Origin: an uncultured Methanosarcinales archaeon | GTDB lineage: Archaea > Nanobdellota > Nanobdellia > Woesearchaeales > GW2011-AR4 | Direction: 5' to 3' | DNA length: 64,000 nt | Assembly (NCBI GenBank): GCA_964650285.1 | Contig: CAZYSP010000004.1 | Coordinates: 354 to 64,353 of the forward strand | In this document: piece by piece, positions 8,853-54,618 of the stretch | Numbering within the stretch: the stretch's first letter is position 1 | Layout: every line of letters begins with the position of its first letter | The notes under the pieces: model-generated | The model's database searches: none | The model's input: only the letters and a program-made list of their open reading frames with translations | Told to the model about the DNA's origin: nothing | Position numbers and translations under genes: made by a program

Positions 8853-8914
8853 CCAAAACCAGCGGAAAACAAAGTTTTCCTGGGTATTTGAAAATTCTAA
8901 GAATTTCCAAAACA
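8853..8914. repeat. Palindromic mini-hairpin cluster (REP-like)
   Basis: GGAAAAC-AAA-GTTTTCC and AAATTC-TAA-GAATTT hairpins; the CCAAAACCAGCGGAAAACAAA core recurs, with one extra C, at 54509-54530. Confidence 0.6.
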
Positions 8915-8951
8915 TTTATATATCTCATACCAGCAATCCATAGTGTAAAGA

Positions 8952-20078: not shown

Positions 20079-20741
20079 ATGGAATTCAGCAAAATAAAAG
20101 ACGTTATTAATGACATTAAAAGAGGAAAGTTTGTCATTGTGGTGGATGATGAAAACAGGGAAAACGAAGGTGACCTAGTTCTTGCCGCTTCAAAGGTAAC
20201 AGCCAATAAGATAAATTACATGATAAAATATGCCCGTGGTTTAGTGTGCATGCCGATTATAAGAGAAAGATTAGAGCAATTGGGTATACCTGCAATGGTA
20301 AATCATAAAGAAATCAATAGATGCATGTTTTCTATACCTATAGATTACAAAAACGGAACAACAACTGGAATTTCCCCAGCTGACAGAGCTGCTACAATAA
20401 GTGCTTTAGTTAATGAAAATACAAAAAATGAAGACTTTGCTAAGCCTGGACATTTATTCCCTATAATATACAAAGACGGTGGTGTTTTAGTAAGAGAGGG
20501 TCATACAGAAGCATCTGTTGATTTAGCTCGTTTAGCAGGATTATATCCTGCAGCTGTAATATGCGAAGTAATAAATGATGATGGAAGCATGGCAAAACTT
20601 CCTGACTTAATTGAATTCTCAAAGAAGCATAACAATATGAAGATTGTTACTATTAAAGATTTGGTTGATTATATAAAAAATAATCCTGATGCTAGTAAGG
20701 CAGAAGAGCAGAGTGTAGTTCTAGATACTGCAAATCAATAA
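20079..20741 (+). CDS. ribB: 3,4-dihydroxy-2-butanone 4-phosphate synthase
   Basis: DDENRENEGD, TTGISPADR, PGHLFP, REGHTEA, CEV...DDGSMA. Confidence 0.97.
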   Translation: MEFSKIKDVINDIKRGKFVIVVDDENRENEGDLVLAASKVTANKINYMIKYARGLVCMPIIRERLEQLGIPAMVNHKEINRCMFSIPIDYKNGTTTGISPADRAATISALVNENTKNEDFAKPGHLFPIIYKDGGVLVREGHTEASVDLARLAGLYPAAVICEVINDDGSMAKLPDLIEFSKKHNNMKIVTIKDLVDYIKNNPDASKAEEQSVVLDTANQ

Positions 20742-20774: not shown

Positions 20775-21137
20775 ATGGGAGTTAAATTAATATTATCCAT
20801 TTTATTTGTAATCGGATTATTTTTAATAGTTAGTTGTACTTCTGAACCAAAAGTAGAGCCATCTGTGCCAACAATATACATAGCAGGAGCAGTTGAAGAA
20901 CCTCAAGTAAAAACTTTTGTTGTTGGAGAAGAAAATTCCTTGTCATGGATTGAAGAGACAAAAGAAAAAAGGCACGAATTAAACATGATAAGATATTCTG
21001 AAGAATATGAAGATGAACTTGAAGAATTTGAGCTCAAAAGCAGACTAAAAAACGTAAGAAGATCTGTTGATAATGAATTAATTGTTGGGTTTGATGACGA
21101 GCTCGATAATCCAAGGTGGAAGGAAGTGGGTTCTTGA
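20775..21137 (+). CDS. Hypothetical lipoprotein
   Basis: Hydrophobic N-terminus ending LIVSC (lipobox-like). Confidence 0.6.
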   Translation: MGVKLILSILFVIGLFLIVSCTSEPKVEPSVPTIYIAGAVEEPQVKTFVVGEENSLSWIEETKEKRHELNMIRYSEEYEDELEEFELKSRLKNVRRSVDNELIVGFDDELDNPRWKEVGS

Positions 21138-24779: not shown

Positions 24780-24910
24780 CGGGTCAGAAGGGATTCGAAC
24801 CCTCGACCTACAGCTCTCCTCTAATGAATAGAAGGCTGTCGCTCTTTTTGGCTTCGCCAAAACCTTCTCGAAACAGGTTTCTCGAAGTATCCAAGCTGAG
24901 CTACTGACCC
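24780..24910 (-). tRNA. tRNA-Arg(UCU) with two introns (D-loop 20a/21, 43 nt, 24846-24888; 37/38, 13 nt, 24816-24828)
   Basis: Acceptor GGGUCAG/CUGACCC; anticodon stem ACAGC/GCUGU around CU-UCU-AA after splicing; both introns form BHB motifs (UUGG/CCAA; CUUC/GAGG). Confidence 0.9.
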
Positions 24911-31706: not shown

Positions 31707-32303
31707 ATGATTTTCGAACAGATTCCAGTAGGAATTATGCAGAATTTTTCCTATATAATTGGAGATGAAAAAAGCAAAATAGCAGCAGTAGTTGACCCTG
31801 GCTGGCAGGTAAATAAGATTTTGGAAATTGCAGAAAAACATAAATTAAACATTAAAATGATTTTAATGACACATACGCATCATGATCATGCCAATGGTGT
31901 TAAAAGCATTGCAGATGCTACAGACGCAACAGTATATGTCCATAAGGAAGAAATAAACGAAATCAAGAAATTAGGAATTGATAAAATTAAAGCAATAAAG
32001 GATAATGATGAAATTAAAATTGGAAAAATAAAAATCAAAGTTATTCATACACCTGGGCATACCCCTGGTAGTGTTTGTTTTTTAATTAATAATAAAAAAT
32101 TGATAACTGGTGACACATTATTTGTTGAAAACATTGGTCGCGTTGACTTACCAGAAGGAGATGCAAAAAATATGGCTAACAGCTTAAAGAAATTAAAAAA
32201 ATTAAATGACAACATTGAGGTTTATCCAGGCCATGACTATGGCTCAAAACCAAGCTCTACAATTGGTTATGAAAAGAAGAATAATTATCATATGAGAGGT
32301 TAG
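31707..32303 (+). CDS. MBL-fold hydrolase (glyoxalase II-like)
   Basis: THTHHDH, HTPGHT, TGDTLF, PGH. Confidence 0.9.
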   Translation: MIFEQIPVGIMQNFSYIIGDEKSKIAAVVDPGWQVNKILEIAEKHKLNIKMILMTHTHHDHANGVKSIADATDATVYVHKEEINEIKKLGIDKIKAIKDNDEIKIGKIKIKVIHTPGHTPGSVCFLINNKKLITGDTLFVENIGRVDLPEGDAKNMANSLKKLKKLNDNIEVYPGHDYGSKPSSTIGYEKKNNYHMRG

Positions 32304-38021: not shown

Positions 38022-38111
38022 CCAGATATAGAATTTTTAGAATGTATATAAGTTTTTCTAGATATACCCACTAAACAAAAACCTTTATAAAACCAAAATA
38101 CCTACTAGCTA

Positions 38112-38379
38112 TGGGCTAGGCTGGTGTACTGGTCCTACACTGTAACTCTAAACGGACCTTATGAGAGGGCTGAAGCCTGGAAAGAGGCATTTGCTTAGCT
38201 TAGTGGTCTTGATTTCAACGTTGAGGTTCTGTCCTCTTGGGCTGTATTTTTTGGAAATCAGTCAGGATGGGAACATAGCAGCTGTAACCTTTTGATATGG
38301 TGCTTAGGGGGTAGCGGAACTGAGGAGAAATCAAGGTAAGCTGCTTTGCTTTGCTTGTGTCCATTTCCAGGCGCGCCCA
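38112..38379 (+). ncRNA. Signal recognition particle RNA (apparently lacking helix 6)
   Basis: GGGCUAGGC 5' end, UGUAA Alu motif, GGUCC/GGACC loop-loop pairing, helix 5 arms CCUGGAAA/UUUCCAGG, helix 8 CAGG-AUG-GGAA-CAU-AGCAG; TATA at about 38085. Confidence 0.92.
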
Positions 38380-38421
38380 CTTATTTTTCTGATTAGGCAT
38401 TATAAAAATACAAAGAAAAAA

Positions 38422-38477
38422 GTCCTCAAAAATTCCAAAGGAATTTTTGGGACACCAAAAATCGCAAAGCGATTTTT
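38422..38477. repeat. Tandem mini-hairpins (REP-like / possible terminator)
   Basis: CAAAAATTCC-AAA-GGAATTTTTG and AAAAATCGC-AAA-GCGATTTTT between convergent SRP RNA and cupredoxin genes. Confidence 0.7.
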
Positions 38478-38493
38478 TGATGAAATAAAGAAT

Positions 38494-53078: not shown

Positions 53079-53293
53079 GCGGGGATGCCGGAGTGGCCAA
53101 ACGGGACAGAATTAATGTCTAAGCTTAGGTCGCTTATGTAGGTAACCTGTTAGCTTAGTGCTTACGTGGGTTCGAAACAGCTTTTTTGCTTACGCAAAAA
53201 ACCTGGGAAAATGCGGCGAACTTCCCTTTAGTCGTTCACCTAGGATTTTGCTACGCAAAATCAGAAAAGCTGGCGAAAGTCCTACTCCCCGCA
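53079..53293 (+). tRNA. tRNA-Leu(UAG) with three introns (30/31, 13 nt; 37/38, 15 nt; 59/60, 103 nt at 53177-53279)
   Basis: GCGGGGA/UCCCCGC acceptor, A73; spliced anticodon arm ACAGG-CUUAGGA-CCUGU; each intron supplies a BHB central helix (GGAC/GUCU, CUUA/UAGG, UUCG/CGAA). Confidence 0.88.
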
Positions 53294-54399: not shown

Positions 54400-54618
54400 T
54401 CTAACACCAATCTAAATTTTAAAATTTGTAATTAACAAAAAAATACTTAATACTAATGCATAACACCATTTAAAATTTTCTATTCTAACTTATTAATACC
54501 AATTAACACCAAAACCCAGCGGAAAACAAATTTACTCAAAAATACAATTTTTTACACCAACTTCATTAGTTTCCAAAACCTATTTAAACTAAATCAATAA
54601 TCAAAATATTGTGTTAAA

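Follow-up and report, generated by a model that had tools for sequence, protein, structure and literature searches.

The window analysed here is a stretch of 64,000 nucleotides (positions 354-64353 of contig C4) from an archaeal genome, coded G000, which is assembled in 36 contigs of 927 kb in total, with a GC content of 33% and an estimated completeness of 90.6%. The genome was compared with 61 relatives, 12 of them congeners (G001, G002 and so on are the codes of related genomes, and L008, L015 and so on those of the loci fetched from them). On the plus strand of the window, at 53079-53293, lies a class II tRNA-Leu(UAG) gene interrupted by three introns, its exons being 53079-53109, 53124-53129, 53146-53176 and 53280-53293. 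Neither ARAGORN nor Rfam calls the unspliced gene; the product spliced by hand, 82 nt long, is called by ARAGORN as tRNA-Leu(tag). Intron 1 (14 nt, 53110-53123), at position 31/32, was assigned by hand, its removal being required for the ARAGORN call, and its 3' CTAAG pairs with the exon sequence CTTAG. Intron 2 (16 nt, 53130-53145) occupies the canonical position 37/38 and is supported by the call of the spliced product. Intron 3 (103 nt, 53177-53279) separates nucleotides 59 and 60 of the T-loop and shows a strict hBHBh' (bulge-helix-bulge) motif.

An earlier note on this DNA had listed seven short hairpins in the window, and all of them are present. Two lie in intron 3 of the tRNA-Leu gene (ttttttgc-TTAC-gcaaaaaa at 53182-53201 and gattttgc-TAC-gcaaaatc at 53244-53262), one in the D-loop intron of a tRNA-Arg gene (ttttggc-TTC-gccaaaa at 24846-24862), two in an intergenic element that we designate family A (caaaaattcc-AAA-ggaatttttg at 38427-38449 and aaaaatcgc-AAA-gcgattttt at 38457-38477), and two in another one, family B (ggaaaac-AAA-gttttcc at 8864-8880 and the imperfect tttgaaaattc-TAA-gaatttccaaa, with its core at about 8897-8911). 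The one-strand readings GCGTAAGC, GCGTAGC and GCGAAGC given in the note are correct as well, the tRNA-Leu pair being antisense to the tRNA and the tRNA-Arg one lying on the sense strand.

The interval that the note had singled out as such a hairpin region equals intron 3 exactly. Judged by its predicted fold, 53177-53279 is a bulge-helix-bulge intron of the T-loop, and the two hairpins flagged in it are its internal arms. The 103-nt intron would be expected to be excised in vivo by the archaeal splicing endonuclease, EndA, whose gene is represented in G000 by a 214-aa open reading frame (ORF) on contig C21 with a PF01974 match of 92.5 bits. In DPANN archaea, an alpha4-type EndA with an inserted loop has been linked to heavy disruption of tRNA genes (PMC5829648). 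Read on the sense strand of the tRNA, the intron contains six consecutive T (53181-53187), which resemble the archaeal oligo-T termination signal, here situated in an essential tRNA gene.

The consensus structure of ten members of the intron family (RNAalifold) comprises the T-stem, a 4-bp helix TTCR/YGAA, the 3-nt bulges AAA and AGT, and an 11-bp outer helix of the intron. The 4-bp helix joins T54-R57 of the tRNA to YGAA of the intron, and the pair formed by R57 covaries, being G-C in five copies and A-U in the other five, which indicates that the tail of the intron is matched to the T-loop of its host. In the consensus fold, the 5' arm of hairpin 1 (TTTTTTGC-TTAC-GCAAAAAA, 53182-53201) pairs with the 3' end of the intron, forming the h' helix; local hairpin and splice helix are thus alternative structures. 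Hairpin 3 (GATTTTGC-TAC-GCAAAATC, 53244-53262) is a conserved arm, with 7 bp retained in 10/10 members and one compensatory change of the closing pair.

A home-made search identified at least 12 tRNA genes of G000 with an intron at 59/60 that ends in YGAA plus two bases, mostly YGAAAG, and these introns fall into subfamilies. A BLAST search with the 103-nt intron finds a single further copy in G000, located in a tRNA-Val(UAC) gene on another contig (ARAGORN call tRNA-Val(tac) after removal of the intron); between the two, identity is 94% over 96 nt in the BLAST match and 92% in the full-length alignment. Moreover, the family is found in 17/61 relatives, at the same T-loop site of tRNAs with different exons (Leu, Val, Ser, Gly, Glu and Tyr, as assigned by hand), and its copies are 82-94% identical whatever the host tRNA or genome. 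Sizes of 36 (hairpin 1 plus tail), 43, 76, 103 and 132 nt occur, besides larger forms, about 153 and 215 nt long, with foreign insertions. In the smallest member, L015, the intron body consists of hairpin 1 alone, followed by the YGAAAG tail. Loops of the intron hairpins are GNRA or GNA on the tRNA-antisense strand in most relatives.

The tRNA-Leu(UAG) gene differs in its number of introns between close relatives, having none in G002, one (canonical) in G011, two (both in the anticodon arm) in G004 and three in G000. The exons of the G004 gene are identical to those of G000; it has a 31-nt intron at the site of intron 1, and an intron at position 37/38 is present in both G004 and G011. The T-loop intron is seen in G000 only, and since three congeners (G004, G002 and G011) are without it, parsimony points to its recent gain in the lineage of G000. 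As the 3' YGAAAG matches the T-loop of each host, copying between T-loops is the most likely process, and the Leu intron would probably have been copied from another tRNA gene via the near-universal flanks of the T-arm. The earlier note had proposed another route, in which a palindrome landing in a tRNA gene becomes an intron; the T-loop introns argue against it, all of them being at 59/60 with a 3' end matched to the host, as copying between T-loops would produce.

The second interrupted gene of the window, tRNA-Arg(UCU), lies on the minus strand at 24780-24910 and contains a 42-nt D-loop intron (24846-24887) and a 13-nt intron at position 37/38 (24816-24828). Its spliced product of 76 nt is called by ARAGORN as tRNA-Arg(tct). 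The hairpin TTTTGGC-GAA-GCCAAAA (24846-24862, minus strand) forms the 3' end of the D-loop intron, an assignment made by hand and supported by the call of the spliced product, and its 3' arm CCAA is complementary to the exon sequence TTGG. ARAGORN run on the unprocessed DNA yields a single tRNA for the window and 21 for the whole genome, and the Rfam search of the window yields one tRNA and a signal recognition particle (SRP) RNA at 38109-38382. Standard tRNA finders overlook many tRNA genes in G000 and in the genomes of its relatives.

The family A element of the window, 60 nt long (38423-38482, plus strand), is situated 40 nt downstream of the SRP RNA gene and has the structure TCCT-CAAAAATTCC-AAA-GGAATTTTTG-GGACAC-CAAAAATCGC-AAA-GCGATTTTTT-GATG. 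The orthologous spacer of G001, G008, G010 and G011 is cleanly devoid of it. A profile search identified 14 copies in G000, none of them in a tRNA gene. The lower helices, 3 bp per hairpin, covary between subfamilies (TCC/GGA, TGC/GCA, ATC/GAT, CAC/GTG, ATGC/GCAT); the MAFFT alignment of the family was structurally inconsistent, and no covariance model was built. The two hairpins at 38427-38477 are parts of one 60-nt mobile insertion element. Comparison of presence and absence across close genomes, which the earlier note had suggested, reveals differences both for this element, missing at the orthologous site in four congeners, and for the Leu T-loop intron, missing in three.

Three of the 14 family A copies reside within long ORFs, where they are stop-free and in frame, in both orientations. 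These encode aspartokinase (C8:43628-43687), a GT2 glycosyltransferase (C5:60886-60945, the element being in reverse orientation) and a dihydroorotase-like amidohydrolase (C6, about 31944-32006). Aspartokinase and GT2 orthologues from five congeners each are shorter by exactly 60 nt (20 codons), the insert being missing. At these two sites, the ones mapped to the base, no target duplication was found, nor was a parent element of the family; a classical miniature inverted-repeat transposable element would have both, the parent sharing its terminal inverted repeats. The inserts would presumably be translated, as Rickettsia palindromic elements are, and the predicted peptides include VLKNSKGIFGTPK. 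The possibility that the copies in ORFs are bulge-helix-bulge introns of mRNA was rejected by inspection, the A-rich flanks being unable to pair and 3/3 copies being stop-free in frame. Other copies of family A are found in divergent promoter regions.

Family A was also observed inside tRNA introns of two relatives. In L008 (G001:C5) and L020 (G007:C7), it interrupts hairpin 1 of a member of the T-loop intron family, at the A-run, and the spacer of the G007 copy has itself received a second, nested copy; in both genomes, the tRNA exons and the splice motif look intact. Larger members of the intron family carry extra modules, and in these two relatives the modules are demonstrably foreign hairpin insertions. 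Among all the fetched loci there are 41 matches of family A, and the only ones near a tRNA are the two inside pre-existing introns. Family A is best described as a selfish element that inserts in A/T-rich sites without target duplication and survives between genes, in frame in protein genes and inside tRNA introns.

Outside the comparison set, the core pattern of family A was matched 62 times in 185,000 species genomes, against about 17 matches expected by chance (our own estimate), and only 23 of the loci have a significant profile match. The same tags with variable stems occur in metagenome-assembled genomes (MAGs) labelled Woesearchaeota, Pacearchaeota, Nanoarchaeota and Aenigmatarchaeota, and also Methanosarcinales and Methanobacterium. 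In particular, low-GC MAGs with the labels Methanosarcinales, Methanobacterium sp. UBA8 and Methanobacteriota contain the full architecture TCCT-hairpin-GGGACAC-hairpin-YRGTG (L086-L147). Either family A crosses phyla, or those bins are mislabelled or contaminated.

The family B element of the window (8859-8911, minus strand) consists of the hairpin CCAGCGGAAAAC-AAA-GTTTTCCTGG followed by the hairpin TTTGAAAATTC-TAA-GAATTTCCAAA, and abuts the B recognition element (BRE) and TATA box (8909-8923) of a leaderless gene starting at about 8952. The general unit is ACCAGCGRAAA..TTTYCTGGG, then TA or GC, then TTYGRAA..TTYCRAA, directly followed by AAC and the TATA box; in most inspected copies, the start codon is about 25-35 nt beyond the TATA box, and in every inspected copy the side of the first hairpin (hp1) faces the adjoining TATA box. 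The profile search identified nine full and two partial copies in G000, and the family is dispersed in all congeners. The motif YCRAAA is present in only 16 of the 333 promoters of G000 defined by a TATA box plus an ORF. The sequence at 8864-8911 is a second two-hairpin repeat next to promoters, distinct from family A. At 54512-54548 of the window there is a weak family B-like sequence (AAAACCCAGCGGAAAAC, nhmmer E = 0.52), which may be a decayed copy.

The position of both families raises the question of whether the intergenic hairpins are host signals that do not move, such as terminators, stabilisers of RNA 3' ends or protein-binding operators. Many copies do lie between genes, after the SRP RNA or beside promoters, the stems covary with the structure preserved, the loops are A-rich on the locally transcribed strand, and all inspected family B copies have the hp1 side at the BRE/TATA of a leaderless gene. 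Still, the element after the SRP RNA is dispensed with in the four congeners named above, the copies of family A that are not in ORFs include those in divergent promoter regions, the ORF copies occur in both orientations, and nested insertions exist. Moreover, an orthologous promoter in seven congeners keeps the BRE/TATA with both hairpins missing, and would apparently function without family B. Even at permissive thresholds, an Rfam search over the intron, family A and family B returned no match above chance, and the hairpins match no Rfam family. Taken together, these observations make host signals a very unlikely explanation. In particular, the possibility mentioned in the earlier note that the hairpins occur only at gene 3' ends, as terminators, is at odds with family A being found in ORFs and divergent promoters in both orientations, and with family B being found upstream of promoters.

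The earlier note had also asked how the hairpins compare with composition-matched shuffles, and the answer depends on the class of hairpin. Perfect hairpins with a stem of 6-8 bp and a loop of 3-5 nt are as frequent in the 927-kb genome as in first-order Markov shuffles, so that here the genome-wide count is at chance, and only stems of at least 9 bp with a 3-nt loop are in excess (34 versus about 9 in shuffles, whole genome). The enrichment concerns clamped hairpins in non-coding DNA, defined by a stem of at least 7 bp, a run of four A or T, and G/C adjoining the loop. Of these, 18 with the A-run first were observed versus 1.3 expected, and eight with the T-run first versus 0.9 expected, the overall excess being 9- to 14-fold. 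An origin of the hairpins as chance products of an AT-rich genome, which the counts of 6-8-bp stems taken by themselves would allow, is refuted by this non-coding excess and by the matches of family profiles (E-values down to 1e-15); the families are, moreover, conserved across genomes, and we consider the probability of this explanation to be practically nil.

The clamped hairpins have a polarity, as those of the introns are T-run-first, and those of the intergenic families A and B are A-run-first. Since the arm that carries the A-run or T-run is the same on either strand, this distinguishes true sequence classes. Of the eight non-coding T-first hairpins, five are located in tRNA introns and another two arise where both hairpins of a family A copy meet; the majority of the A-first hairpins belong to the two intergenic repeat families. 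Outside any recognised tRNA, contig C14 of G000 carries two T-first hairpins about 470 nt apart (20428-20444 and 20901-20919), TTTTT(T)CT-GCA-AGAAAAA(A)TCGCGGAGTGA.

Similarity searches agree with the polarity. BLAST of all 12 T-loop introns against G000 revealed no convincing copy outside tRNA genes, the only matches being 15-19 nt long with E from 0.004 to 0.044, and the profiles of families A and B match no tRNA gene or tRNA intron of G000. Two attempts at a link were set aside. Homology of family B hairpin 2 with the TATCCCAGAG T-loop introns is rejected for now, as the family B hidden Markov model (HMM) misses them even at E = 10; and a loose regular expression for the TTCRAA-CCCAG junction was useless, with 156 matches versus 141-170 in shuffles.

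We conclude, with a probability of about 0.75, that the seven hairpins represent three unrelated kinds of sequence, namely tRNA introns and families A and B as separate repeats, and do not form one family. Their common look (a short lower helix of G/C, a mismatch, then a stem with an A/T run that is clamped by G/C next to a loop of 3-4 nt) would then be due to AT-rich composition and general requirements of hairpins, and not to common descent. The claim of the earlier note that the same units are shared by tRNA introns and intergenic DNA does not hold, given the opposite polarity and the lack of BLAST or HMM cross-matches between the classes. Its notion of a small palindromic mobile unit stands in part: family A is such a unit, with empty sites, 14 copies and in-frame inserts, but intron and intergenic hairpins are not one unit.

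Several observations weigh against the division into three kinds, or against parts of it. Family A elements are found inside a T-loop intron in two relatives, G001 and G007; a reverse-oriented module similar to a short intron lies outside any tRNA in G005 and G003; and the CCCAG...CTGG hairpin of family B, flanked by TTCRAA/TTTGAA, resembles one subfamily of T-loop introns by eye. The predominance of GNRA or GNA loops on the tRNA-antisense strand of the introns is a further link between the classes. In addition, the gene calls are a simple ORF mask, the identity matrix singles out no donor for the Leu intron, copies in different tRNAs and genomes all being 82-94% identical, and the preference for one gain over three losses is parsimony over four genomes, applied without a tree. 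The reverse module (L010, G005:C2, about 2540-2680, and L014, G003:C33) is a short version of the T-loop intron with two T-first hairpins and a GNRA loop on the sense strand of the adjacent gene. It follows a protein gene whose last 43 bp occur as two direct copies, one on either side of the module, and looks like an insertion that rebuilt the gene end.

The earlier note had explained all seven hairpins as copies of one palindromic unit that is moved as single-stranded DNA by an HUH enzyme (Y1, RAYT-like) and is tolerated as an intron in tRNA genes. This explanation has a number of facts in its favour: family A is mobile, inserts without target duplication and bears short conserved tags on its hairpins; it is found inside tRNA introns of G001 and G007; the minimal intron, L015, is a hairpin with a YGAAAG tail and nothing else; the module of G005 and G003 is reverse and outside tRNA; and the loops of most introns are GNRA/GNA on the antisense strand. 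Y1 transposase genes (PF01797) are present in 25/61 relatives, including 6/12 congeners. However, the PF01797 search of G000 itself, complete to 90.6%, gave no match, and the hairpins at the ends of the congeners' Y1 loci are GC-rich and do not resemble those of families A and B, one of these loci being an ordinary IS200-type element, so that the proposed link with HUH enzymes is not borne out. Profile matches of family A or B are located upstream of only two congener Y1 genes, outside the ends of the insertion sequence (IS). Further points against a single unit are the T-run-first introns as opposed to the A-run-first families A and B, the lack of cross-matches, the 41 family A matches of which only two, inside a pre-existing intron, are near a tRNA, and the restriction of T-loop introns to a single position with the 3' end matched to the host. 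Hence a single unit moved by an HUH enzyme appears very improbable. The lack of target duplication in family A is by itself compatible with HUH-type movement; nothing ties the two.

The IS200-type element is found in G008 in two copies (L047 and L048, on contigs C29 and C30), 685 bp long and 96% identical, which encode a 200-aa Y1 protein and are inserted 3' of TTATAC. One of them is situated within a tandem array of a 75-nt repeat composed of a double hairpin plus TATA, and the other one, upstream of the SRP RNA locus, has family B elements as its neighbours. Apart from families A and B, G000 has another repeat, at least about 150 nt long, in no fewer than two near-identical copies (C2:25124-25338 and C12:19500-19664), with the structure GGCTGTGCCAGAGCGGTGTTGCAAGCG..CATTCGAC-AAA-GTCGAATG...

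A broader reading would unite, for Woesearchaeota-type archaea, the tiny hairpin elements that lack target duplication (family A, the intron modules and perhaps family B) as ones moving in single-stranded form, via Y1 acting in trans or via another enzyme; we regard this as unlikely. The part of it that concerns introns is equally doubtful: introns would be safe landing pads that grow by accretion, and the T-loop family would have started from a minimal unit, a hairpin with the YGAAAG tail, such as one relative has. If it were true, the route of intron gain proposed in the earlier note would be right in essence, and the birth and growth of introns could be read directly from this genus. Returning to the three separate kinds, which we prefer, some of their features can be set beside systems known from other organisms; in the library searched, queries on Woesearchaeota and their palindromic repeats or tRNA introns brought up no published description of these families.

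Repetitive extragenic palindromic (REP) sequences and bacterial interspersed mosaic elements (BIMEs), associated with RAYT, as well as palindromes derived from IS200/IS605, are short hairpins with conserved tags, often paired, that produce no target-site duplication. Family A is similar in that its hairpins are tagged and paired, target-site duplication is absent, and HUH Y1 genes exist in the wider lineage. It differs in that G000 has no Y1 gene and no Y1 gene of the relatives is flanked by hairpins of family A or B, the element has no GTAG-type head, and no conserved target tetranucleotide was seen; moreover, 3/14 copies are inside ORFs, unlike the extragenic location of REP and BIME.

The closest counterpart of the T-loop introns is known from Thermoproteales, where, according to the account of Fujishima et al. 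(2010, Mol Biol Evol 27:2233) given in PMC4033280, similar bulge-helix-bulge introns occupy non-canonical positions of different tRNAs within and between related genomes. The two systems have in common that multi-intron genes are frequent and that orthologues differ in the presence of introns, which points to recent gain. Here, the host belongs to a DPANN (Woesearchaeota-type) lineage with a single-domain EndA, and the family is tied to one site (59/60), has the host-matched YGAAAG tail, consists of long, modular introns (36 to about 215 nt), and in some relatives contains a separate mobile hairpin element. Among DPANN archaea, Candidatus Micrarchaeum (ARMAN-2) and others have non-canonical tRNA introns and tRNA sets that seem incomplete to standard finders (PMC3239211, PMC5829648), and undetected disrupted tRNA genes were explicitly predicted in Woesearchaeota and Pacearchaeota (PMC5829648). 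The subject of these two studies is endonucleases and the positions of introns, and neither describes a common long intron family, gain of an intron in a single gene or insertions inside introns. How introns arrive in archaeal tRNA genes was the subject of a 2014 review that called for snapshots of insertion events (PMC4033280), and a 2026 preprint on Asgard archaea considered several routes and arrived at no general one (10.64898/2026.10.13.758758). The tRNA-Leu(UAG) genes of four close relatives, with 0, 1, 2 or 3 introns, would provide such snapshots of intron arrival: the newest intron appears to be a copy from a family still 82-94% identical across tRNAs and genomes, and the same family has been caught with a separate 60-nt mobile hairpin inside.

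Family A, in turn, has its nearest likeness in the Rickettsia palindromic elements (RPEs; Ogata et al. 2000, as presented in PMC10969869), which are about 100-150 bp long. On that description, the features in common are a dispersed palindrome, placement between genes and also, in frame without stops, in metabolic genes unrelated to each other, and insertion polymorphism between related genomes; in our data, these are exemplified by the palindromes of aspartokinase and GT2, in frame, stop-free and missing from the orthologues of five congeners each. The likeness drawn here is one of architecture: relative to the RPEs as described there, family A is 60 nt long, has two tagged A-run hairpins, is archaeal and also enters tRNA introns. 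A very small palindromic element, comparable to the RPEs of Rickettsia, is lodged within enzymes of a reduced archaeal genome.

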